Below are positions 2,794-39,501 of a DNA stretch of 64,000 nucleotides, in pieces. A program made the position numbers and the translations under genes. The stretch comes from an uncultured Candidatus Saccharibacteria bacterium (GTDB lineage Bacteria > Patescibacteriota > Doudnabacteria > UBA920 > 2-02-FULL-46-11), in the NCBI GenBank assembly GCA_964609765.1, contig CAZSSD010000001.1, positions 45,282-109,281 on the forward strand, read 5' to 3'. The first letter of the stretch is position 1, and every line of letters begins with the position of its first letter. The notes beneath the pieces were generated by a model, which was not told the origin of the DNA, ran no database searches, and saw only the letters and a program-made list of their open reading frames with translations.

Positions 2794-4209
2794 ATGAAAA
2801 AAACAGAGTATGTGTTTTTATGGGGAAATACGCAAAGCTGCTTTACTTTTGAAGGCAATACAAATTGCTTGGTTAGATTTCCGGACAATCCTTGGAATAA
2901 AGCGCTGGAGGCGATGATAACGGTTGTTAAAGATAACAAAGCATCTTGTTATGTTTCTCAAAAAAGCATAGATAACAATATTAAGTTAGGTAGGCAGTTT
3001 TTAGATGCGAGATACGTAAAAATATTTCTCCAAAATATTCACCGTGTTACGGTCCGACATGATCGACTATTTAAGGAGTTAGACAAACTTAATTATAGAA
3101 GCCTCGGTGACGAAGAACTGCTAAATTATTTTATAAAAATATTAAATCAATGGTCAGATACCATTGGCTATTTTCGCGGTACGCAAATGGAGGGCACCCA
3201 AGTATTAGCTAATAAAATTAATAAATTAGTCGGGCCCGAAGAAGCGGCTACGCTGATTTTGCCAACAGACCTGGATCCGGTAAACCGGGAAGAAAAAGAT
3301 TGGCGAAAGCTACTCAAAAGGCCATTTAGTAAAAAAAGTATTTTTAATCATCTGCAAAAATACCCATGGCTTGTTCCTTATCACGTTGCGCTTGATCAGG
3401 CTTACCGGACTATGCAAGACCGCTACAAGCAAGGTAGGGGAGTCTTTGAGAATCGGGATATCAGAAAGGAAAAGGCCGATCTTAAAAGAAAACAGGGCGC
3501 AATATTTAAACAGTACCCTAACGCGGAAAGGCTGGTGAAGCTTATGCAGCAATTGGCTCTGGCCAGGATAAATCTGAAATCCTATTGGGGTGGCACCGAC
3601 TTTTATTTAATGCCTTTGTACGCAGAAATGGCCAGGCGCAGCGGTGAGCCGATAGCTGATATCTTTAACTATTATTTGATTGAAGAATTGAAAGCATTGT
3701 TGAATAGAAGAAAGCTGACAAGGGAAGAAAAGCAAAATCGAAAAAGATGCTTTGTATTTTTATGGAAAAAAGGGAAAATTATTATACGCTCTGGTGATGC
3801 GGCTGAAAAATTATCTAAGAAAGAGTTGGGAAGCCTAACCGAAACGGGAAACGCAAATGAGCTTAAGGGCTTTTGCGCCAATCCGGGTAAAATTACTGGC
3901 GTTGTCAGAATTTTTGAGGCCAATAATTATAAAAAAGCAAATGCTTTGCGTAAATCATTTGGAAGCGGCGAAGTATTGGTAACTCAAATGACTCAGCCAA
4001 ATATAGTTGATATTGCCAAAAAAGCGGTGGCCATTATTACTGACGAGGGCGGTATGCTTTCCCATGCCGCTATTATCTCAAGGGAGTTTGGCATTCCATG
4101 TGTGGTGGGGACCCATATTGCTACGCAAGTCTTAAAAGACGGCGATTTGGTGGAAGTTGACGCTAATAAAGGATTGGTTAAAATTTTGAAGCGGAAAAAT
4201 GCCAATTGA
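2794..4209 (+). CDS. PEP-utilizing enzyme mobile-domain protein (paralog 3)
   Basis: C-terminal VLVTQMTQPNIVDIAKKAVAIITDEGGMLSHAAIISREFGIPCVVG. Confidence 0.7.
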   Translation: MKKTEYVFLWGNTQSCFTFEGNTNCLVRFPDNPWNKALEAMITVVKDNKASCYVSQKSIDNNIKLGRQFLDARYVKIFLQNIHRVTVRHDRLFKELDKLNYRSLGDEELLNYFIKILNQWSDTIGYFRGTQMEGTQVLANKINKLVGPEEAATLILPTDLDPVNREEKDWRKLLKRPFSKKSIFNHLQKYPWLVPYHVALDQAYRTMQDRYKQGRGVFENRDIRKEKADLKRKQGAIFKQYPNAERLVKLMQQLALARINLKSYWGGTDFYLMPLYAEMARRSGEPIADIFNYYLIEELKALLNRRKLTREEKQNRKRCFVFLWKKGKIIIRSGDAAEKLSKKELGSLTETGNANELKGFCANPGKITGVVRIFEANNYKKANALRKSFGSGEVLVTQMTQPNIVDIAKKAVAIITDEGGMLSHAAIISREFGIPCVVGTHIATQVLKDGDLVEVDANKGLVKILKRKNAN

Positions 4210-5704
4210 TTTTAAAAAATGGCAGTTTGAATTTACGCAGCGCAACAGCCACCCTATTTTAATGGCTGATTTTTGGACGCGCGCCATGTATCATTACTTC
4301 CCCGAGGAAATAAAGTTACCTTTGGGGGGCCGTGATTACATATATACTGGGAAAAACAGTGGTTATGTAAAGAAAAATCAAAAGCAGGAGCTCTTAAAGA
4401 TACTTAAAAACGCCGTTTCAAGAGAGCCATATTTGCATTATGTTTATAAAAAGACACTGGCTCGGGTGGCGCAATTCGAAAAAGTTGCCGATGATATTTC
4501 TAAACAACTAAATGGCCAAATAAGCCAGAAGGACATTTTAAATTTTTGGTTAAGATTTGATGATCATTTTTGTAAGTTAATTCCGTGGTTTTTTATACCC
4601 TATTACATTACCGAAGAAAATTTTTTAGTTGATAAAATCAAACAAAGGCTGGAAAACTACAAAAAAGAGGTTGAGGAAATAACAGATTTTAACAACGCCT
4701 TGGCCATACTCGTTCAGCCCAGAATAAAAATGTATTTTCAGCAAGAGCAATATGACTTTTATAAATTGGTATCATATGCTGAAAAGTATAAAAATTTTGA
4801 AAAAGACAGAAAATTTACTGAACTAGCCAATAAGTATTTAGTTAAATATGGCTGGACCAGTACGTATCTAGTTCTGCCCTTGGTGCCACTATCACTAAAA
4901 GTGTTAATTAAACGAGTTCACGCCGCTCTAAAAAATAAATTTACGCGCCAGTATTTACTGCAAAGACAAACCGCGGTTAAAAACAAAAGAGTGGCAGCGA
5001 AATTGTTAAAATTATTGGCGCGCGATAAAGGGCTCCTAAAAAACATCAACTGGGCGCAAAAATATGCTTGGCTACTCACAGCCAGCGTAGAACGATCCCT
5101 TATCGCCACTTTTAAGCTGCAGAATTTTTACAGATTGATCAGCCTAGCCGCCGGCATTAAATATGCCGATTGGATTCATCTAACGTCTGTCGAAATTAAA
5201 CAGGCTCTGGCCGGAAGCCTAAAGATTTCCATGCAGGAAATTGCTAAAAGAAAAAGCGGATATTTTTATATTTTTGAAAATGGCAAGCCAAGCTTGTACA
5301 CTGGCGCTAAGGCCAGAGCGCTAACTAAGCAACTTGAACGTGCTACTGCGGCATTGCCAACAAAAACAGATCAAATAGTCGGCCAACCGGCCTCCCCGGG
5401 CCAGGTTACTGGCAGGGTCAGGATTTGCCGATCAGCCGCCGAGGCGGCCAAATTGGGGCCCGGTGAGATATTGGTGGCTGTTATGACGACTCCGGACTAT
5501 GTACCGGCCATGAAACAGGCTGCGGCTATTGTAACAGACGAGGGCGGCCTTTTATCCCACGCCGCCATTGTATCTAGAGAACTAGGCAAGCCTTGTATAG
5601 TTGGGACAAAAATAGCAACTAGGTTGCTAAAATATGGCGATATGGTGGAAGTTGATGCCGGGAGCGGTATCGTAAAATTATTGGGTCATACCCTAAAACG
5701 TTAG
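4199..5704 (+). CDS. PEP-utilizing enzyme mobile-domain protein (paralog 4)
   Basis: C-terminal ILVAVMTTPDYVPAMKQAAAIVTDEGGLLSHAAIVSRELGKPCIVG. Overlaps the previous gene by 11 nt, suggesting translational coupling. Confidence 0.7.
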   Translation: MPIDFKKWQFEFTQRNSHPILMADFWTRAMYHYFPEEIKLPLGGRDYIYTGKNSGYVKKNQKQELLKILKNAVSREPYLHYVYKKTLARVAQFEKVADDISKQLNGQISQKDILNFWLRFDDHFCKLIPWFFIPYYITEENFLVDKIKQRLENYKKEVEEITDFNNALAILVQPRIKMYFQQEQYDFYKLVSYAEKYKNFEKDRKFTELANKYLVKYGWTSTYLVLPLVPLSLKVLIKRVHAALKNKFTRQYLLQRQTAVKNKRVAAKLLKLLARDKGLLKNINWAQKYAWLLTASVERSLIATFKLQNFYRLISLAAGIKYADWIHLTSVEIKQALAGSLKISMQEIAKRKSGYFYIFENGKPSLYTGAKARALTKQLERATAALPTKTDQIVGQPASPGQVTGRVRICRSAAEAAKLGPGEILVAVMTTPDYVPAMKQAAAIVTDEGGLLSHAAIVSRELGKPCIVGTKIATRLLKYGDMVEVDAGSGIVKLLGHTLKR

Positions 5705-5727: not shown

Positions 5728-6798
5728 ATGCTTGTGACAATTTTAGCTTTCTTTTTAGTTTTATTAGTGCTGGTAATCGTCCATGAATGGGGGCATTTTT
5801 ATGCCGCCAAAAAGACCGGCATGGTTGTGGAAGAATTTGGCTTTGGTTTTCCGCCGCGAGCGGCTTCTATTAAGCACAAGGGCACGCGCTATTCGTTTAA
5901 CTGGCTGCCTTTGGGCGGATTTGTAAAAATTCAGGGTGAGAATGGCGATGACGATCGCACAGGATCTTTTAGCACAAAATCAATTCCAAAAAGGTTTATC
6001 GTGCTTGCTGCCGGCTGTATTATGAATTTGGTTTTGGCCTGGGTGCTATTAAGCATTTCTTTGGCCGCCGGCACGCCGCAGCCAATCGGTGAGGTTAATA
6101 AGGATGCGATAAGGGAAAACACCAGAGTAATCGTGGGTTTGGTAGGCGCCGGCTCACCAGCCGAAGCGGCCGGATTTAAATCTGGTGATGTGGTTTTGAA
6201 AATAAATAATATGCCTGTTTCTTCTTTCCAAGTTTTTCAGGAGCAGACCCGTGCCCATGCTGGTAAAAATGTAGAATATACGGTGCAGCGAGATGGCGAA
6301 ACTAAAACCTTAAATGCTGTCCCGCGTGAAAATCCACCGGCCGGGCAAGGCATGATAGGCGTGCAGCTATCCGAATGGGCAGAGGTGTCTTACCCCTGGT
6401 ATTCCTCGGCTTGGAAAGGTTTAGTTCTCACTTGGGATTTTTTGAAAATGACTTTGGACGGTTTTGGCCAACTTATTGGTCAATTATTCGGCGGACCAAA
6501 AGTGGCCGGTGAAGTGGCTGGACCAATTGGCATTGCCGTACTTACGGGGAAGTTTGCCAAGATGGGTATTGTCGCGTTGCTGCAATTTACAGCACTGCTT
6601 AGTATCAACCTCGCCATTATTAACGCTTTGCCGATCCCGGCTTTAGACGGTGGCAGAATTTTGTTCCTGTTGGTTGAGGGTATACGCGGCAAAAAGGTGC
6701 GGGCTAAGGTTGAGCAGTGGTCGCATGCCATTGGCTTTGCCCTGCTTTTGGCCTTGATGGTGGTGGTAACGATCAAAGATATACGCAATTTATTTTAA
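5728..6798 (+). CDS. rseP: RseP-like site-2 protease (M50 zinc metalloprotease with PDZ domain)
   Basis: HEWGH zinc motif in the first TM helix, a central PDZ-like segment, and a C-terminal LDGG motif. Confidence 0.85.
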   Translation: MLVTILAFFLVLLVLVIVHEWGHFYAAKKTGMVVEEFGFGFPPRAASIKHKGTRYSFNWLPLGGFVKIQGENGDDDRTGSFSTKSIPKRFIVLAAGCIMNLVLAWVLLSISLAAGTPQPIGEVNKDAIRENTRVIVGLVGAGSPAEAAGFKSGDVVLKINNMPVSSFQVFQEQTRAHAGKNVEYTVQRDGETKTLNAVPRENPPAGQGMIGVQLSEWAEVSYPWYSSAWKGLVLTWDFLKMTLDGFGQLIGQLFGGPKVAGEVAGPIGIAVLTGKFAKMGIVALLQFTALLSINLAIINALPIPALDGGRILFLLVEGIRGKKVRAKVEQWSHAIGFALLLALMVVVTIKDIRNLF

Positions 6799-6860
6799 CC
6801 TTCGAATTCGCAAATTGGGACGAATTCGCGAATATTTACGAATAAAAACTCGCTAAATCT

Positions 6861-6883
6861 AAAGCCGCCTAAGGGGCGGCTTT
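6861..6883 (+). terminator. hairpin AAAGCCGCC-TAAGG-GGCGGCTTT after rseP
   Basis: Perfect 9-bp GC-rich stem flanked by A/T runs. The trailing T-tract is short. Confidence 0.5.
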
Positions 6884-6889
6884 AAGATG

Positions 6890-7654
6890 TGTGGATGACA
6901 CGACAACTGTTTTGGGTGTAGGATTTATTTATCAGCGCGAAGTTAGCGCTAAAGGACCGGGCCCGATAACGGGCTTGGAGGTAGGCACGAGTGCCAACGC
7001 TTAGGGTGTCCTGCCGCGAGTCTTCCGGCAGGCCAAGCGGCGACCGCGTGCCGAAGGTGTGAGAGCGGGGGAGCATGGCGCTAAACCGCCAAAGAAGTTT
7101 CCCCGGCAGCCAGTCTGGCCCTCCGGGCGGATTAGACACCCGCCAGCAGTCGGGGGTACACCAGCCACACCCGCCTGGACCTTAGCCCAGCTATTCTGGT
7201 GTTTGCACCAACCAAGGGCTTGCGTCTGCCTTGGCACCAGAAGAGAACCGTGCAGGCCGCCATCCCGCCGCAGGGGCTTTGACAAATACTGCGTAGCGGC
7301 TGCGCTGGAGAAGGTCCGAAGTGCTCAAGCAGTTGTTTTATATAAATGGCGGCTGACCACCCCACGGACAGATGCACGCATCTGATCCGCGAGGTAGGTC
7401 GCCGCCACCGGCTTGCCGCCAAATTCTGGGTTAGGTATTTTCCTCCCCGGGGAGACGCCGACATTCAGGGTTCGCGCAAGGGGCACCAGGAATCCCGCCG
7501 AGCGCACTTGCTTGGTCCTGGCGCTGGCAGCAAGTCGGGTCGTATTTCGAAGCAGGGCTAAGGAGGAAGGCTCGATGTTGTGAGCGAGCGGTGTGTTCGC
7601 GTGTCCAAGGTGCCCGGCGGGCATCACAAACTACGCGGACCCGTATACTCCTTA
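6890..7654 (+). ncRNA. GC-rich structured ncRNA locus, candidate RNase P RNA (rnpB)-like, possibly two RNAs
   Basis: About 770 nt that is much more GC-rich than its flanks. It has only overlapping junk ORFs on both strands and is bounded by terminators. It contains CTAAAGGACCGGGCCCG (resembles RNase P CR-I GGAAAGUCCGGGCUCC), GAGTGCCAACGCTTAGGG (resembles the P15 GUGCCAGGUAACGCCUGGG) and GGTGTGAGAGCGGG (resembles GGUAAGAGCG). Confidence 0.35.
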
Positions 7655-7691
7655 GCCCTGCTTCTATCGGAAGCAGGGCGATTTCTTTTTT
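7655..7691 (+). terminator. rho-independent terminator (CCCTGCTTC-tatcg-GAAGCAGGG plus T-tract)
   Basis: 9-bp stem followed by CGATTTCTTTTTTT on the + strand. Confidence 0.65.
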
Positions 7692-7820
7692 TAGGGCATT
7701 TTTGTTATAATCCCAGTAGTAGAAATTCGATATTTCAACTTCCTTGCGGAATAAAAGGTAAGTTGAAATAGGAAAAAGAGATCGAATTTCACTACTGGGT
7801 GTTTGTATTTTTAAGAAAGT

Positions 7821-9299
7821 ATGACAATGAAAAAAAACCTTACAAGCCGGGCGGACGATTATGCCGAGTGGTACCAGGATGTTATCGAAGCAGCGGATTT
7901 AGCCGAACACTCTCCGGTGCGCGGTTTTATGGTTATTAAGCCGTACGGTTACGGTATCTGGGAAAATATCCAAAAAGTTTTAGACGCAAAAATTAAGGAA
8001 ACGGGCCACGTAAATGCTTACTTCCCCTTGCTTATCCCAAAGTCTTTTATCGCGCGCGAGGCCGAGCATGTGGAGGGTTTTGCCAAGGAGAGCGCGGTGG
8101 TTACTCATCACCGTTTAGTCTCGGATCCAAAAGAAGGTTTGGTGGTAGATCCGGAAGCTAAACTTGATGAAGAATTAATCATCCGCCCGACTTCGGAGAC
8201 TATAATTTATTCAATGTTTAGCCGCTGGATTCAGTCTTGGCGGGATCTGCCGATGCTCATAAACCAGTGGGCGAACATAGTGCGTTGGGAAATGCGCACA
8301 AGGCTGTTCCTGCGCACATCTGAATTTTTATGGCAGGAGGGGCATACCGCCCACACTACTGAAGAAGAGGCGGAAGAGGAGGCGCTGAAAATGCTCGGCG
8401 TATATAAAGATTTGGCCGAAAATTATTTGGCCATTCCCGTAGTGTCTGGCCGCAAGAGCGAATCGGAAAAGTTTGCCGGAGCGCTCCGAACCTACACGAT
8501 CGAGGCTATGATGCAAGATGGCAAAGCGCTGCAAGCCGGCACTTCGCACAACCTGGGCCAGAATTTCGCCAAGCCGTTTGAAGTTAAATTTTTGGATAAA
8601 GATAACGAGCAAAAATATGTTTGGCAGACAAGCTGGGGGGTATCCACGCGTTTAATCGGGGCTTTAGTCATGGCCCATGGCGACAATTTGGGTCTGGTAT
8701 TACCGCCAAAGATGGCGCCTATAAAAATTGTGATTGTGCCGATTTGGAAGGATGACAGTGAAAAAGAAAAAGTGCTGGAACATGCTCAAGAATTGCGTGG
8801 ACGCCTGCAAGTGCTTGACGGTAACGTAAAAGTAGACGATCGAGATTATCTTACCCCCGGGGCTAAGTTTAATGAATGGGAAAAGAAGGGCGTGCCGATA
8901 AGGGTAGAAATAGGGCCAAAAGATATTGCCAATCATGAGGTGGTTATGGTGCGCCGCGATAAGGGCGAAAAAAAAGTAATTTCTATGCACAATTTAGTTG
9001 AGATTTTGGAAGATGAGTTGGATATTATGCAATCGGACTTGTTGAACCGCGCGCGTGAATTTATGGCTGAACATAGTTACGAAGTGGATGATTACGAAAA
9101 GTTTAAGTCCATTATTGAAGAAAAACCCGGATTTGTTTATGCCCATTGGTGCGGATCTGATCAATGTGAAAGAGAGATTAGCGATGAGACTAAAGCCACC
9201 ATCCGCTGCATCCCGCTTAGCCAAGCATCTGAACAAGGCAAGTGTATAAAGTGCGGCGCCGCGTCGGGCCAAAGAGTGGTGTTTGCAAAGGCTTACTAG
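7821..9299 (+). CDS. proS: prolyl-tRNA synthetase, archaeal/eukaryotic-type (class II, C-terminal Zn-binding domain)
   Basis: N-terminal ...EWYQDVIEAADLAEHSPVRGFMVIKPYGYGIWENIQ... and a C-terminal CIKCG Zn motif. About 490 aa, typical of the short ProRS form. Confidence 0.9.
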   Translation: MTMKKNLTSRADDYAEWYQDVIEAADLAEHSPVRGFMVIKPYGYGIWENIQKVLDAKIKETGHVNAYFPLLIPKSFIAREAEHVEGFAKESAVVTHHRLVSDPKEGLVVDPEAKLDEELIIRPTSETIIYSMFSRWIQSWRDLPMLINQWANIVRWEMRTRLFLRTSEFLWQEGHTAHTTEEEAEEEALKMLGVYKDLAENYLAIPVVSGRKSESEKFAGALRTYTIEAMMQDGKALQAGTSHNLGQNFAKPFEVKFLDKDNEQKYVWQTSWGVSTRLIGALVMAHGDNLGLVLPPKMAPIKIVIVPIWKDDSEKEKVLEHAQELRGRLQVLDGNVKVDDRDYLTPGAKFNEWEKKGVPIRVEIGPKDIANHEVVMVRRDKGEKKVISMHNLVEILEDELDIMQSDLLNRAREFMAEHSYEVDDYEKFKSIIEEKPGFVYAHWCGSDQCEREISDETKATIRCIPLSQASEQGKCIKCGAASGQRVVFAKAY

Positions 9300-33598: not shown

Positions 33599-36199
33599 AT
33601 GTCAGATCCTATTCAACCGGGTTCGCCAATTGATCCTACTTCAGCCGAGACAGGCAGTGAGCTTTCTGACGCAGCTCATCTAGTCTCTAGTTTGCGTCAA
33701 AACATTGAAGAGGTTTCGGCTATGGTTGCCGGCGTTTCCGCAAAGAAAGCGCCTTTGGCTGATTTTTTCCCCATTTGGCAGCGTGTTAAGCAGATACGTG
33801 AACAATTTAAACAGTTACCTGATGTCCCGCTTTGGCAGGACGAACAAACGCAATTATACGAGGCCTATGAAGCCATTCGTTATGGCCGCTATCAAGAATT
33901 TTTACGCGGTGCACTTGCTGACGCCCTTCAAGAGCTAAATCCCGATTGGCCTGAATCAGAAGTAAATCGCTACCGCAACACAATGTCTTTGCCAGAAATG
34001 CAGGATAAAGTTCTCAATGCTGCAAGACTGGTACGTAGATTGAACGAGAATTTAGATTTTCTCCGGGGCGTACTATCTCACGCACCCGAGCTTAAAATTT
34101 TGGAAAATATGGAGACTTTGCTCGCGGCCCAAAGCGAAATTGAAGACATTATAGATCAGTTGCAAAGCACTCTTGAAAGCGGCACCACGCCAATCAATAC
34201 GGGCTTAGTGGCGGAGTTGCGCGAGCGCGTTAATAATGTAAAAAAAGACCTCGCAGATTTAAACCGAAAAGCATCAGAGGAGGGTCAAGTTCAGCCTGCT
34301 GCAGAGTCGGCGCCAGTGGAAACAGAACAGCCAGTTCCGGCTGTAGTTACTGTCGAGCCGTCTGCGGCAACGCCGTCGGCGGAGCGGGAAGCCATTGAAA
34401 TAACCGGTTCGCTGGCTAAAAAAATGGAAAATATTTACGCCAACTTGCAGGACAAGGGTGTTAATGTTCCATATGGGTTATACCATTTTGAATTTAACGG
34501 GACCGATGTAGCTTTCTATGTAACTGCTGATTTTGAGGGTCAGGGCCGGTATGTGGGAATAACATCTACCGAAAAAGGACGCTCGGTACAGGTTGATTTC
34601 CGGCTCTATCTTGATTTGGGCAAAGTTGAATTACGTAAAGGAAGCGACAAACAAATTGTAACCGGCGAGCCGGCCATGGCTACGCTCGAGGACCTATTGG
34701 TTAAGCTGGAAAGCGGTACGGGTAAAAAATTTATAAGCGAACCGGCCCGGACTGTGGCGGAAACCCAAGAGCCTTCGCCCACGGATTTGGACGCAGCTTT
34801 GCTACACGAGCAGGAGGAACCGGCTATGCCCGAGGCCGCGGTAACAGAGGCAAGAGAAATTGGGCGGCCGCAGCCTGCTGAAATTGCCGCATCGGGATGG
34901 GAGAATCTTGTTATGCCGTCAACTTCGCTGCGGGCGCCGCTCAATGTTATAGAGCGATCGGACGGCACCCATGCTATCTACATCAGAGCAGGCGCGGAAA
35001 TAGACCACATAGCTGTCGGCGGCATCAGACATAATTTATTTCCTGAAGCCGAGGCTTATGAAAGATTAGAAACAATTGAACCGGCCATAGTGCGCATTCA
35101 GCCCACCACAACCGCCGGCGAAGTCACCTATAGCGTGGTCAAGCAAGGCGTGGTCAAGCAAGCTGGAGAAGCTGAACTAAGACCGGCCTCTCCCTCTGGC
35201 CTGGCCGCGCAACCCGCTTTGGGCGCAGAAATAATTGCGGAAGCGCCGACAACCGAGATGGAACCGGCGCCGGTTGAGGCGACTCCGACCCCGCAAGCCC
35301 CACCTGCTCCCGAGGAACGCGAAGAAGATGTAGCGGCAGTTCCTGATGCTGCCCAACCCGAACCAGAACCCCAACCAGAACCAGAACCTATTAGACCGGA
35401 ACGGCAGCAAACTTTTGATATGGCGGAATTTGCCGCGCTGGCGGCTGAATTCGCGCGGGAGGCGGATAAAGAAGATTATTACACCTGGGAAATGGGTCTT
35501 GCCCGCTTACCCCAAGAGCTTATCGACAGTTCAGAAGAGAGATTAAAACGAATCAGAGTGATTATTGATGAGTTTGGGCATTTAATTGGGCTAGAGGCAA
35601 AAGTTAAAGATGATTTAGGTTACGAGCTTCGTATTTCTGTTCAAAAAAGCGCTTTCAGTAGTTCGGCAAAAGACGGCGTGCGGGTAGTTTTAAACTTTGC
35701 CGACAAGGATATGAAAAGCATAACCTGGAATTTTGTCGACGATGGCTATATTTCTTTTAGCGGATGGTTGGGTAAAGACCCTTTACCTGATTTTGCCAGC
35801 AAACACAATCTGACTAGTGTCCAAAAGGATGCTCTGGCTGTTTCTGAATTTGAAAGATTGATTATGCCCCTAAAGGGGCGGCTTGAGGAAGTTGATAAAC
35901 AAAAACAGATAGCCGCCGCCGAAGCAGAACTAGAAAAAGAAAGAGAAAAAGAAAGAGACGACTATGAGCCGATAACTAGGGAGCAGAGATTAGTAAATCA
36001 AACGAAGTATAATAGGTTAGCGCCGCTTGCGGCTAAAGCTAAAAACGGCAGACTTGAACTTCCTAATGGACAAGTTTTGGAATTCTTGCCCGAGGCGGGC
36101 GAGAGCAGGCACAGAAATATTTTAGTAATTAACGAGGCAGATGGGACCTATGTAGTTATTGACGAAGAAGGCCATCGTCTGGCTATTGATTTAGAATGA
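33599..36199 (+). CDS. giant hypothetical protein (866 aa) with a PEPEPQPEPEP low-complexity linker
   Basis: 15-nt gap after the previous gene. Acidic, with a Pro/Glu repeat encoded by a CCAGAA tandem repeat at about 35346-35400. Confidence 0.6.
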   Translation: MSDPIQPGSPIDPTSAETGSELSDAAHLVSSLRQNIEEVSAMVAGVSAKKAPLADFFPIWQRVKQIREQFKQLPDVPLWQDEQTQLYEAYEAIRYGRYQEFLRGALADALQELNPDWPESEVNRYRNTMSLPEMQDKVLNAARLVRRLNENLDFLRGVLSHAPELKILENMETLLAAQSEIEDIIDQLQSTLESGTTPINTGLVAELRERVNNVKKDLADLNRKASEEGQVQPAAESAPVETEQPVPAVVTVEPSAATPSAEREAIEITGSLAKKMENIYANLQDKGVNVPYGLYHFEFNGTDVAFYVTADFEGQGRYVGITSTEKGRSVQVDFRLYLDLGKVELRKGSDKQIVTGEPAMATLEDLLVKLESGTGKKFISEPARTVAETQEPSPTDLDAALLHEQEEPAMPEAAVTEAREIGRPQPAEIAASGWENLVMPSTSLRAPLNVIERSDGTHAIYIRAGAEIDHIAVGGIRHNLFPEAEAYERLETIEPAIVRIQPTTTAGEVTYSVVKQGVVKQAGEAELRPASPSGLAAQPALGAEIIAEAPTTEMEPAPVEATPTPQAPPAPEEREEDVAAVPDAAQPEPEPQPEPEPIRPERQQTFDMAEFAALAAEFAREADKEDYYTWEMGLARLPQELIDSSEERLKRIRVIIDEFGHLIGLEAKVKDDLGYELRISVQKSAFSSSAKDGVRVVLNFADKDMKSITWNFVDDGYISFSGWLGKDPLPDFASKHNLTSVQKDALAVSEFERLIMPLKGRLEEVDKQKQIAAAEAELEKEREKERDDYEPITREQRLVNQTKYNRLAPLAAKAKNGRLELPNGQVLEFLPEAGESRHRNILVINEADGTYVVIDEEGHRLAIDLE

Positions 36200-39100
36200 G
36201 CAGTCACAACCAAGATTCCGAATTGGATGAATTAGAAAGAATGGCGCGCGAAGCGTTGCGAGCTCAAGGCGTGGACCCGGATGCTGCGTCGTCTGACGCT
36301 GAAGTTCCTTTATCGCCAAGCGAGCCGGCAAAGCCGCGCCGAAGGCGCGCAAGTGGCGCTGCGGCGGACGCCTTAGTGGCGCGGGCAGGGACCAGTTCGG
36401 GTTTATCCGAACCAGCGGTTCCGCCTGTACCCGAGGCAGCCCCGATGCCGCAAGCAGCGCCAAAGCGTAGGAGGGCTAGTGGTCAGGAAGCGGACGATCT
36501 GGTCAGCAGGGCTGGCGCTCCTACCGCCCAGCCGCCGAGAGTGAGAGTAGCAGAAACCAAGTCGGAGCCAACAATACCCGAGCCCGTGCCGGTCGCTCCC
36601 ATACCGCGTATAGAAAGTCCGTGGCTTGAGCCCGCGGCCGCCAAACCGCCGGAGCAAAAGACGGCCGGGGATGAAGAAATTATTGATCGCGAAACAATGG
36701 AGGAGATGCGCGGGCGCATTGAATCGGACCTCTCAACCCTGTCTCAAATGTCCGAGCCCGAGCTTGATCGGGTAAAGATTTCTATCGAGTCTTTTCAGAG
36801 ATTTACGGCTGATAAGGATTTACAGACAATTGAGCTGCATTGTTTTATAGCGGACGCGCTTTCACGGGTGGAAAGCGCGCGCCTGAAATTGAGAAATGGC
36901 GGAGATAAGAGATTGCCAGCGGAACAGGAGCCAACCAGGCCAGAAACGGAACTGGAAAGAGAATTGCGAGGCGTCATGGCTGAAGTTTTGTCTGAAGTCG
37001 GTTTAAGGCCAGATGAGGTCAAGGCCATAGATTTTGGAAAAATCTGGGCCTACCTTAAGAAAGTTGGGGGAACAAAAATAGATCTTAAAGATATGCTGAT
37101 TGCCGGCGGTCCGGCCATCGTTGTTGCGGGTATTTTGCGCTGGACATTACGGACTAAACTGGGCTGGGCACCGGAAACAGCCGGCGCCGTGGTGGGCGGC
37201 CTGTTCGGCTTGGCCAGGGGTATAAGCGCCGAAGATAGGCGCCAGCAGACGCGCCGGACAAAATATCAGGAAATTCTGCACGAGTTTACGGCCACGGGCG
37301 GATTTGACGGCTTGTGGGCAATGGCTGATAAGGATATTTTAAAGGCCATGACTACGGTTTTGGCCATGCGCAAGACAGTGGAAAAGGCCGAGGGCGAGCT
37401 TGACCCGGCACGTTATCAGGAATTGACGGATTTAATCACCAAGCAGGAGATTTTACTATTGCGCCGGAAAGAGTTGCGGGAGAGCCAAGGCGTGGAACGC
37501 TTGGTTAAATTTATGGCGGTGACGCGCGGTGTAAACCTTGATGGCTTGCAAAGCCAGCGTAAATTACTGCTGCACCGTTTTATTCTAGACCGGACTGTCG
37601 GCGCTGAAGTAAAAATAGCGGCCGGACAGCGGCGGGATTATAAAGCCGTGGCCGGCAAGGCCGTGGCCGGTGCGGCCATTGGCTGGAGCATGGCGGCTTT
37701 GACTGATTTGCTCTTTGATTGGGCAAGAGTCCGATTTTTTAGCGGTGCCCCGGCCGAAGCGGCGCCGGAGGGTGCCGGACCGAGTGAAGCACCAACCGGA
37801 GCGGAAGGAGCGCCTGCCGAGCCAACCACACCTCCGGCTGAAACAACTGACACGTCAACTGCGCCCACTCCCACAGAGCAGCCGCCAGCGCCGAAACCAG
37901 ACATAAAAGCAGCACCGGCGCCCGCCGCGGCTGAACCGGCTGAACCTACTACGCCCGCTGCCGGCGACTTAGAGCGTGCTTTAACGGCCGCGTCGGACCG
38001 AGCCCAAGACATAGTCAAAGAAGCGCGCGAAGCGGCCGCCGCCGCGCGCGCGGCCATGGCCAATGCGCCGAGCGAACAAGCTCGTACCGCTGCTGAACTC
38101 GCGGCCCAAAAAGCGGAGGCCGCCGCCCAAGCCGCCGAGCGAGCCGCGGCTGAAGTAGGCAGGGCCACTACGCGCGAAGCGGCGCAAAAGGCGCTTCGGG
38201 AAGTGGCCGGCAAAGTGGCGGAAGCGCAAATGGAGCAGCAAGCGGCCGAGGCGGCCACGGCCGCAGGCAAGGCCATTGAAATTGCGGGCGAAAAGATTGT
38301 GATACCCGGGACGCTCATGGATGTCACGAGCGAGGCCGGCAAAAACGGCATCTCCTATCTGGTGCGGGATCAGCTTGAATATATTGCCGACCAAGTTAAG
38401 GGTAATGCGGAAGTGTTGCAAAAGATATTCGGTCCGAGCATTGATGCCGCGGATGTGGCCGAGCGATCGGCGGACTTTAGGCAGGCTTTGCGGGAAAAAA
38501 TGTTTGCGGTTTTGGAAAACAATGAGGTGGACGGTAAAACCATTCTTAAGTTAGATGAGGCAGGGAAGGTAATTTCTGAAGTACGTTTAGGCGCCGCTGA
38601 TGTTAATACCGTGTCCATAGAATACGACCCCTCTAATCCGAGTGGCTTTGCGGTGAAGGTCGAACCGCCGACCTATGTTGAACCTGTTGCGCCGGCCCAA
38701 CCTCTCGCGCCGCCAGCAGAAGCGGCGGCGTCACCGGCCGCCTGGCCGAGGAAATTTTCGCTTGAAGACTTACTGAAGTTCAGAGAGGCCGTTAATTCGC
38801 CCAATTTCCCGGAGTCGGTAGATAAATTGGGCGGGCATTTTAATCTTCAAGAGCCGTCCTTGCCGCCGGACGGAGTTCCGCAGCCGCCTGATTATTTGCG
38901 CGAGGATTTCTGGCAGGGCCACGCGCCAACTAAAATGGGTCTTTTATTCGAGGCGCCCACGACAGCCATGGCCGCGGCGCGCCTGTGGTTTTTAGGAAGT
39001 ATGGTCAGCGCCGGACTTTACGGCGCGCATGAGGCCACTCAAGCCGTCGTCTCCCGAGTCTCGTCAAAGACTGAAAAAACTCCCGGGGCCGGCCTTGCCC

Positions 39101-39501
39101 CGGAGGCGAAAAAGTTTGTCAGATTGCGCGAGCGCCTCAAAGCCAAAGATAAATCACGCATGAGCAGCCGCGAAAAAGTGGTCACGGCCTTAATTTATCT
39201 CAATCCCAAAGATTTTGTTAACCCCGGCGAGCGCACCCTGACGCCTTTGGAATTTTACGGCGATAAAGAAACGCCGGGCGTTTATCGCTTAATTAAAAAT
39301 CACAACTGGCCGGCGGTATTTAATAGGCTATTGGCTTTGAAACTTGAGAAAGGCCCGGAAAAACGTGAGCTTATTGATGAGGCCGCGGCCTTGCTGGGCG
39401 ATTTGGAAGGCGCCCGCGTGGCCTATATCAATTATAAAAACGGTCGCCAGTCTAAAGAGACGGCCGCCATTGATCGCGGCGCGTCGCGGCTCGCGGCCTA
39501 A
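36196..39501 (+). CDS. giant hypothetical membrane protein (1101 aa) with Ala/Pro/Thr-rich linkers
   Basis: 4-nt overlap with the upstream gene. Internal TM helices (GGPAIVVAGILRW; AVAGAAIGWSMAALTDLLF) and a long APAEPTTPPAETTDTSTAPTPTEQPPAPKP region. Confidence 0.6.
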   Translation: MSSHNQDSELDELERMAREALRAQGVDPDAASSDAEVPLSPSEPAKPRRRRASGAAADALVARAGTSSGLSEPAVPPVPEAAPMPQAAPKRRRASGQEADDLVSRAGAPTAQPPRVRVAETKSEPTIPEPVPVAPIPRIESPWLEPAAAKPPEQKTAGDEEIIDRETMEEMRGRIESDLSTLSQMSEPELDRVKISIESFQRFTADKDLQTIELHCFIADALSRVESARLKLRNGGDKRLPAEQEPTRPETELERELRGVMAEVLSEVGLRPDEVKAIDFGKIWAYLKKVGGTKIDLKDMLIAGGPAIVVAGILRWTLRTKLGWAPETAGAVVGGLFGLARGISAEDRRQQTRRTKYQEILHEFTATGGFDGLWAMADKDILKAMTTVLAMRKTVEKAEGELDPARYQELTDLITKQEILLLRRKELRESQGVERLVKFMAVTRGVNLDGLQSQRKLLLHRFILDRTVGAEVKIAAGQRRDYKAVAGKAVAGAAIGWSMAALTDLLFDWARVRFFSGAPAEAAPEGAGPSEAPTGAEGAPAEPTTPPAETTDTSTAPTPTEQPPAPKPDIKAAPAPAAAEPAEPTTPAAGDLERALTAASDRAQDIVKEAREAAAAARAAMANAPSEQARTAAELAAQKAEAAAQAAERAAAEVGRATTREAAQKALREVAGKVAEAQMEQQAAEAATAAGKAIEIAGEKIVIPGTLMDVTSEAGKNGISYLVRDQLEYIADQVKGNAEVLQKIFGPSIDAADVAERSADFRQALREKMFAVLENNEVDGKTILKLDEAGKVISEVRLGAADVNTVSIEYDPSNPSGFAVKVEPPTYVEPVAPAQPLAPPAEAAASPAAWPRKFSLEDLLKFREAVNSPNFPESVDKLGGHFNLQEPSLPPDGVPQPPDYLREDFWQGHAPTKMGLLFEAPTTAMAAARLWFLGSMVSAGLYGAHEATQAVVSRVSSKTEKTPGAGLAPEAKKFVRLRERLKAKDKSRMSSREKVVTALIYLNPKDFVNPGERTLTPLEFYGDKETPGVYRLIKNHNWPAVFNRLLALKLEKGPEKRELIDEAAALLGDLEGARVAYINYKNGRQSKETAAIDRGASRLAA

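Follow-up and report, generated by a model that had tools for sequence, protein, structure and literature searches.

Large structured RNAs of unknown function are few in bacteria (OLE, GOLLD, ROOL, raiA and some others), and they have repeatedly revealed new biology. Members of the candidate phyla radiation (CPR), or Patescibacteria, have small genomes (about 1 Mb) that contain very little non-coding DNA, and to our knowledge almost nothing has been known about their non-coding RNAs. In Bacillus, in which the order of rasP and proS is syntenic, a T-box leader lies between these two genes. Here, a 64,000-nt stretch of contig CAZSSD010000001.1 from an uncultured bacterium (hereafter the window) was analyzed, with a focus on the interval 6890-7691 between rseP and proS. 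The RseP protein of this host is about 50% identical to proteins of Ca. Doudnabacteria, which places the organism within CPR/Patescibacteria. The original prediction, made from the letters of the sequence, had described the interval as a G+C-rich locus free of open reading frames (ORFs) and bounded by terminators, probably encoding one or more structured non-coding RNAs with RNase P-like motifs.

With somewhat better than even confidence, we interpret the interval as the gene of a stand-alone, dispensable and lineage-restricted large structured non-coding RNA, representing a new family, which would act in trans as a folded RNA. The sequence analysis shows it to be non-coding, conserved well above silent sites, equipped with promoter and terminator signals, encoded on the + strand, outside Rfam and sporadic in distribution. 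An RNA of about 760 nt would be transcribed from its own sigma-70-type promoter (ATGACA, 18 nt, TAGGAT) and end at its own intrinsic terminator; its most likely part would be that of a scaffold or partner of a protein or a ribosome-associated complex, in a role that is probably accessory and not essential. A 760-nt RNA gene that is under selection similar to that on second codon positions of an adjacent gene of essential type, in a small genome, is unlikely to be idle.

The predicted transcription unit and its homologue

Relatives of the locus were taken as the contigs of metagenomic RseP matches and labelled with L numbers; a few of these RseP proteins are 61-75% identical to that of the window. 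A true homologue of the element was found in one other species, L165 (with L164 and L166 of the same species), where it lies downstream of rseP on a contig that ends at the equivalent of position 7506. By blastn, window and L165 are 88.6% identical over 411 nt (6935-7338) and 85% over 160 nt (7349-7506), whereas their rseP genes are 75% identical in amino acids, 71% in nucleotides and 49% at third codon positions, with second codon positions at 88%. An identity of 85-89% in non-coding sequence versus 49% at third positions means that the stretch evolves about as slowly as second codon positions, and the evidence from sequence conservation can be considered strong. The putative gene and its boundaries are as follows.

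6860-6884, + strand: hairpin after rseP (UAAAGCCGCC-UAAGG-GGCGGCUUUA) with a short U-run, probable terminator of rseP, whose stop codon is at 6798
6895-6924, + strand: promoter of the RNA gene, with -35 ATGACA at 6895-6900, an 18-nt spacer and -10 TAGGAT at 6919-6924 (promoter scan and conservation in L165)
6931-7692, + strand: predicted non-coding transcript of about 760 nt, 61% G+C
7655-7692, + strand: intrinsic terminator (GCCCUGCUUC-UAUCG-GAAGCAGGGC, then GAUUUCUUUUUUU)
7703-7711, + strand: proS promoter with the extended -10 element TGTTATAAT, downstream of the RNA terminator and not part of the RNA

Similarity between window and L165 begins at the promoter; the spacer next to rseP and the rseP terminator are unrelated, and L165 has a different yet clearer terminator at the place of the 6860-6884 hairpin. 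Upstream of the RNA only the two promoter hexamers are conserved (TTGACA/TAGGAT in L165), and they stand 18 nt apart in both species although the spacer itself mostly differs, which is the pattern expected of a real promoter. Transcription is predicted to start at about 6931. The terminator stem (7655-7679) comprises 10-11 bp, including seven G-C pairs, and leads into a T-run at 7682-7692, so that the locus is indeed bounded by a hairpin in front and a + strand intrinsic terminator at its end. The jump in G+C above the flanks was confirmed as well: 6931-7692 has a G+C content of 0.613 against a mean of 0.486 for the window, and 200-nt segments give 0.59-0.665 across 6900-7600 versus 0.45-0.49 in the flanks. 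Only 0.7% of equally long segments elsewhere have a G+C content of at least 0.613, all of them within a coding ORF of 1101 amino acids at 36-39 kb.

ORFs in 6890-7691 are limited to mutually overlapping ones of at most 110 amino acids on both strands, which have neither a Pfam match nor a homologue, in agreement with the description of the region as ORF-free. No reading frame of the region matched Pfam, and a 126-amino-acid + strand frame had no homologue among 1.84 billion cluster representatives. The concatenated stop-free frames found none among 8000 word-sharing candidates (from 5.8 billion proteins), although this route to homologous loci through 'proteins' of spurious ORFs is probably weak, as it failed to recover even the ORF called on L165. 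In addition, many indels of 1-2 nt separate window and L165, which makes the stretch incompatible with coding. That the stretch is the mRNA of a small protein or a decayed pseudogene appears very improbable. A small protein might be suspected from AAGGAGG at 7560-7566, which is followed 8 nt later by ATG, and from ORFs of 27-51 codons behind an AAGGAGG-type motif in the relatives L081 and L082; however, the window ORF is ATG-TTG-TGA, with two codons only, the L081 and L082 peptides resemble (by eye) neither each other nor the window, and no conserved ORF follows the block in these three loci. Moreover, a translated search detected no similarity between the elements, the Pfam and protein searches gave no homologues for the frames, and frameshifting indels occur all along the conserved part. 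Nor would an identity of 88% be expected of a pseudogene when silent sites are at 49%.

The neighbouring genes are rseP upstream (5728-6798; Peptidase_M50 and PDZ domains, with the name RseP coming from several sources) and proS downstream (7821-9299; TIGR00408); no record was found that corresponds exactly to the RseP or the ProRS of the window. Between the rseP stop codon and the terminator hairpin, two exact CGAATTCG palindromes lie 18 nt apart at 6803-6843, with no other exact copies in the 64 kb; the pair is part of a 23-nt imperfect palindrome and resembles an operator in its layout. In L081, repeats of a similar type (GCGAAT/ACGAAT) lie ahead of proS.

Fold and domains of the predicted RNA

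The minimum free energy (MFE) of the predicted transcript has a z-score of -4.8 versus dinucleotide shuffles. RNAalifold, applied to window and L165, gave 161 pairs (5' domain, 117; aligned 3' part, 44), 15 of which show a one-sided wobble-type change while none is broken and none has changed on both sides, counts that are partly circular because fit to both sequences determined the choice of consensus. All 13 substitutions in consensus-paired columns are transitions; unpaired columns have 47 (21 transitions and 26 transversions) and also contain all 11 indel columns. Pair breakage was tested again on the MFE fold of the window alone, which is independent of L165, and breakage in the 5' domain was lower than for the same substitutions placed at random (P = 0.017). 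Compared with column-shuffled alignments, the 5' domain reached z = -3.2 on the + strand and -2.65 on the - strand. The wobble changes at the RNAalifold pairs (G-C to G-U and A-U to G-U) would produce A-C mismatches on the - strand; since they are valid on the + strand only, and promoter and terminator lie on that strand too, the predicted RNA is read from the + strand. The structural evidence appears real yet modest, limited as it is by two species. With the + strand, its own promoter and terminator, and purifying selection, the proposal of a structured non-coding RNA locus holds. The predicted RNA is divided into the following parts.

6935-6978, + strand: two 5' hairpins (6935-6949 and 6957-6978), the second containing a 'CR-I-like' string
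6979-7176, + strand: 5' multi-branch domain of the RNAalifold consensus of window and L165, closed by 6979-6982/7173-7176, with helices 6984-7001/7036-7052, 7010-7016/7026-7032, 7056-7061/7166-7171, 7067-7073/7098-7104, 7076-7080/7087-7091, 7120-7125/7151-7156 and 7126-7130/7140-7144
7177-7317, + strand: most conserved sub-domain, closed by GGACCUUAGCC/GGAGAAGGUCC
7319-7348, + strand: small hairpin (7319-7334) and AU-rich linker, site of a 130-nt insertion in L165
7349-7405, + strand: long irregular hairpin of 21 bp
7409-7500, + strand: branched domain, closed by 7409-7412/7497-7500
7549-7664, + strand: 3' module, a perfect 17-bp helix (7549-7565/7648-7664) around 82 nt

The stem of hairpin 6935-6949 is longer in L165 through paired changes, and C-to-U changes within 7010-7016 retain their pairs as G-U on the + strand only. 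The sub-domain 7177-7317 differs by nine substitutions and three gap columns in 144 alignment columns, and a covariance model built on it (R1) matches the window, L165 and L164 only. The extra domain of L165, of about 130 nt and closed by a 10-bp helix, is located exactly at the AU-rich linker of the window (7335-7348). It occupies 1898-2031 of L165, is also present in L164, and is closed by GGGU(G/A)CACGG/CCGUGCACCC; this closing helix is perfect in L164 and has an A-C mismatch in L165, a case of within-population variation.

The same junction bears on whether the interval contains two adjacent RNA genes, a 5' one of about 400 nt (6931-7340) and a 3' one of about 340 nt (7349-7692), which we regard as quite unlikely. 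Such a division could be suspected from the weak hairpin 7319-7334 with GUUGUUUU and an AT-rich TATAAAT behind it, from the L165 insertion exactly at the junction, and from the predicted folds of the two halves, which are largely independent. The internal terminator-like site that had been suspected near 7335 exists insofar as this 5-bp hairpin and the string behind it are present, but a + strand scan gives neither a terminator nor a promoter at the junction. Furthermore, L165 conserves neither the AT-rich stretch nor the U-run, and a 13-nt complementarity between 7180-7192 and 7551-7563 spans both halves. Two adjacent RNAs are not favoured, as there is no conserved internal promoter and L165 carries a self-contained domain at the AU-rich linker; the insertion point looks like a variable junction of a single RNA.

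In the 3' module, the Shine-Dalgarno-like AAGGAGG at 7560-7566 pairs with CUCCUU within the 17-bp helix. The string GAAGCAGGGC is present twice in the window, and its copies compete for GCCCUGCUUC, in the 17-bp helix or in the terminator. These alternative pairings, together with the complementarity of 7180-7192, could be regulatory.

The rseP-proS slot in related lineages

In most CPR loci rseP abuts a proS of about 420 amino acids. Searches near relatives of ProRS (one genome per species, 80 loci) and near relatives of RseP in JGI metagenomes (80 loci, with rseP abutting proS in most) found no homologue of the element. Two lineages have a spacer with no element, L167 (about 230 nt; RseP identity 62%) and L168 (about 50 nt; RseP 86-87% identical to those of L083 and L169). 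The spacers of L081 (706 nt), L082 (656 nt) and L083 (more than 796 nt) are more G+C-rich than their own genomes, have fold z-scores of -7.2, -8.9 and -6.6 versus shuffles, and all end in terminators; the G+C content of the elements tracks that of each host genome, at about 10 points above it or less. All RseP identities among window, L165, L082 and L081 are 70-75%. The elements of L081, L082, L083 and L169 showed no similarity to the window family by blastn, nhmmer, tblastn or R1 (including runs with filters off), those of L081, L082 and L083 showed none among themselves, and a MAFFT alignment of five 3' ends was not convincing. In L083 and L169, whose RseP proteins are 96% identical, the first 330 nt of the element are 86% identical versus 62% at rseP third positions and include two fully compensatory pairs, and the 3' two-thirds are unalignable except for a GAGCGGAGGAA block and the terminator. 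It would seem that the slot is filled by different constrained, structured RNAs that are quickly gained, remodelled and lost.

Two other spacers were rejected as elements of this kind. That of L156 has a strong fold signal, which is due to a small protein gene, and that of L085 contains short hairpins only. The gene in L156, a more distant CPR relative, lies downstream of rseP (2750-2962), is G+C-rich and encodes a zinc ribbon of 70 amino acids with two CxxC motifs. Separately, an FMN riboswitch was observed upstream of an EamA-family transporter gene in L082 (1300-1460; above threshold) and L081 (299-493; 60.2 bits against a gathering score of 66.2).

A purine block occurs near the 3' end of the elements: AAGGAGG in the window and in L082, AAGGAGGAAGG in L081, and GCGGAGGAA in L169 and, twice, in L083. 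It pairs with CCUCC 70-80 nt downstream in the window, L081 and L082, directly ahead of the terminator, whose U-run is weaker in L082; the combined AAGGAGG-CCUCC-terminator pattern was found once elsewhere in 2.46 Mb of strands. It may be speculated that the GGAGG block hints at contact with the anti-Shine-Dalgarno end of 16S rRNA or with a factor that binds the Shine-Dalgarno helix. A bolder and rather doubtful interpretation is that one CPR clade related to Ca. Doudnabacteria reserves the rseP-proS spacer for accessory 'ornate' RNAs of a new class, modular in build and rapid in evolution. Its families, at least four and unrelated in sequence (window/L165, L083/L169, L081 and L082), would then have only their architecture in common: a body of 0.5-0.8 kb that is enriched in G+C and composed of many hairpins, a Shine-Dalgarno-like GGAGG block no more than about 130 nt away from an intrinsic terminator and, in three of the families, paired to CCUCC, and mostly also a recognisable promoter for the RNA itself. 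The RNAs would be gained, swapped or lost between close relatives. If so, the RNAs of the slot could be regulators that bind ribosomes or the anti-Shine-Dalgarno sequence, or an RNA-based conflict system in minimal genomes; a slot that holds different structured RNAs, or none, in sister lineages would, if confirmed, point to a class of replaceable RNA genes.

The position of the element also raises the question of a cis-acting leader or attenuator of proS, in which the terminator would be conditional, the 17-bp helix 7549-7565/7648-7664 would serve as antiterminator, and read-through would raise proS expression upon a tRNA-Pro or proline signal, similar to the T-box of Bacillus. The element is always upstream of proS on the same strand, the two copies of GAAGCAGGGC compete for GCCCUGCUUC, an analogous duplication is present in L082 (CAAGGUC/CAAGGCC around GGCCUUG), and the slot is still filled although proS has been swapped for a non-orthologous type. 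However, a TGnTATAAT promoter lies just upstream of proS in the window, L081, L082, L167, L168 and L169, including the lineages free of the element, so that this conserved promoter is located past the terminator. With only about 7 nt between promoter and ATG in L168 and L169, a leader would not fit there. In the lineages that bear the element, it lies between the rseP terminator and this promoter, which makes it, as judged from sequence, a separate unit that is probably neither an untranslated region (UTR) of rseP nor a leader of proS. In addition, no T-box was found in the window (E<=10), in L165, L081, L082 and L083 (E<=5) or in 14 other relatives (gathering threshold), and the T-box sequence AGGGUGGNACCGCG had no match in the region with up to three mismatches. 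The competition between helix and terminator is missing in L081, a length of 600-760 nt is far above that of any known aminoacyl-tRNA synthetase leader, and close relatives lack the element. An attenuator of proS is accordingly an improbable explanation in our estimate.

The proS gene itself has been replaced in place by a non-orthologous type, always between rseP and mreB. The window (7821-9299) and L169 (3333-4802) have a family-I enzyme of archaeal/Bacteroidota-like type (about 490 amino acids, TIGR00408), and L081 (3622-4878) and L082 (6329-7606) a short family-II enzyme of 418-425 amino acids, to which the proS products of L167 and L168 apparently also belong (N-terminal sequences only). 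An AT-rich imperfect hairpin at 7705-7808 fills the 5' UTR of proS in the window, from the TGTTATAAT promoter to the start codon, with arms at 7722-7741 and 7760-7790, outer arms CCCAGUAGUAG/CUACUGGG and an apical loop containing CGG, which is similar to a proline anticodon; L168 and L169 are almost without a leader there. This hairpin gave only chance-level matches to miRNA models.

A further explanation is that the element is a selfish or recently transferred non-coding insertion without host function, for which the spacer is a permissive hotspot, and that the identity of window and L165 comes from recent exchange and not from constraint. The presence of an element varies among close relatives (L168 lacks one, with an RseP 86-87% identical to L083 and L169), slot contents are unrelated in lineages with about the same RseP distance, the L083 and L169 elements cannot be aligned over their 3' two-thirds despite 96% RseP identity, and L165 has an inserted domain, all of which would suit such an insertion. 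On the other hand, differences between window and L165 are uneven, avoid helices and are wobble-compatible within them, and the promoter hexamers are kept while their spacer is not; recombination through the flanks is also unlikely, given their lack of conservation. The element is not bordered by terminal repeats, whether inverted or direct, no other copy was detected in the 64 kb of the window or the 1.17 Mb of related loci, two conserved 23-mers had no match in a search of viral contigs, and the G+C content tracks the host. We therefore consider a selfish insertion unlikely.

Several observations also weigh against the favoured reading of a stand-alone RNA that acts in trans, besides the partial circularity of the consensus counts. 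The window family itself has no double compensatory changes, the 3' part gave no significant structural signal (P = 0.32; column-shuffle z = -1.3), and the - strand also folds well (z = -6.1, 20 shuffles). The family is seen in two species only, with a partial copy in L165, the genes upstream differ between window and L165, and no associated protein gene is conserved alongside. Finally, loss in L168 and L167 and complete sequence turnover at about equal RseP distance fit a dispensable or selfish element no less than a host function. The well-defined coordinates make the locus suitable for metatranscriptomic, structural and pull-down tests.

Elsewhere in the window, two adjacent large ORFs (33599-36199, 866 amino acids; 36196-39501, 1101 amino acids) have no Pfam domain at E<=1e-5, and the window attains its highest G+C content in the second (up to 0.725 in 200 nt). 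Upstream of rseP, 4199-5704 encodes a protein of 501 amino acids in which only a C-terminal PEP-utilising 'mobile' domain (residues about 385-495) is recognisable, the N-terminal 380 amino acids having no NCBIfam match; G+C is low (0.30) around 4500-4800, and this protein is not present upstream of rseP in L165, L081, L082 or L083.

Comparison with known RNA families

At gathering score, Rfam 15 identified only two tRNAs in the whole window, and ARAGORN found the same number, tRNA-Asn and tRNA-Gln, and no tmRNA. The families against which the original prediction was to be checked (RNase P, signal recognition particle (SRP), 6S, tmRNA and introns) were searched with cmscan over 6750-7850, and none was found even at E<=10, nor was any T-box, OLE, GOLLD, ROOL or HEARO; the matches obtained (miRNA and leader models far under threshold) were at chance level. 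The models of large non-coding RNAs, raiA included, likewise gave no match to the region at E<=10, and L165 matched no covariance model of RNase P or another housekeeping RNA at E<=5. All three strings quoted in the original prediction are present (CTAAAGGACCGGGCCCG from 6949, GTGCCAACGCTTAGGG from 6992 and GGTGTGAGAGCGGG from 7056), but the RNase P-like motifs were not borne out, as there is no covariance-model match and neither CR-I (GAGGAAAGUCCGGGC) nor CR-V (ACAGAANCCGGCUUA) matches within 6890-7691 with up to three mismatches. The string likened to CR-I provides the 5' arm for a local hairpin (6957-6965/6970-6978).

Several known families were rejected as candidates on these grounds: RNase P RNA (RF00010/RF00011), which lacked a match at gathering score and at E<=10, as well as in L165 at E<=5, and for which the long-range P4 helix, CR-I and CR-V are absent; tmRNA, negative by both ARAGORN and Rfam; the T-box leader (RF00230), with no covariance-model match, no T-box sequence and a promoter between the element and proS; and group I and group II introns, with none at E<=10 in a locus that is intergenic and interrupts no gene. 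A divergent housekeeping RNA, such as RNase P RNA with insertions, tmRNA, SRP or 6S RNA, is extremely unlikely. The locus does have the size and G+C content that are typical of structured RNAs, and there is a superficial resemblance of strings to CR-I and P15; however, the covariance models found nothing in the locus or in L165, tmRNA, CR-I and CR-V are missing, the string taken for CR-I pairs locally, and nothing alignable was found in lineages of similar RseP distance. L167 and L168 have an empty slot, while that of L081, L082 and L083 is filled with unrelated sequence; such absence from close relatives is unlike an essential RNA, though rnpB could sit elsewhere in those genomes. No description of a large CPR non-coding RNA at the rseP-proS locus was found in the literature, and the window RNA appears to represent a family that has not been described so far, outside all Rfam families.

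Among known systems, bacterial RNase P RNA (RF00010, RF00011) is similar in being G+C-rich and structured, and a 12-nt string of the window (AAAGGACCGGGC) resembles its CR-I; however, the window RNA is twice the usual length, has no covariance-model match, CR-V or P4, and is absent from close relatives. The proS T-box leader of Bacillota (RF00230) occupies the same slot upstream of proS and also has an alternative helix that competes with a terminator, whereas the window lacks the T-box sequence, Stem I, the specifier architecture and a covariance-model match, and its proS promoter is downstream of the terminator. The mode of action as a folded entity, instead of as a coding sequence, would be comparable to that of OLE, ROOL, GOLLD or 6S RNAs. 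GOLLD and ROOL (RF01998, RF03087) are likewise large, ornate and accessory RNAs that are sporadic in distribution and vary in their peripheral domains; they typically occur in prophages or beside tRNA genes, whereas the window RNA, which their covariance models do not match, has no phage context and no viral-contig match. OLE RNA (RF01071) resembles the window RNA in its length of 600-800 nt, its multi-domain, G+C-enriched and independently folded character and its restricted taxonomic range, and the likeness may extend to the ribonucleoprotein scaffold that OLE is thought to provide. The two RNAs do not match in sequence or structure; OLE is kept across many Bacillota and flanked by its partner genes oapA/B/C, whereas the window family occurs in two species only and has no conserved partner gene alongside. 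The general kind, a large structured bacterial non-coding RNA, is known, whereas the family would be new and its hotspot behaviour unusual.

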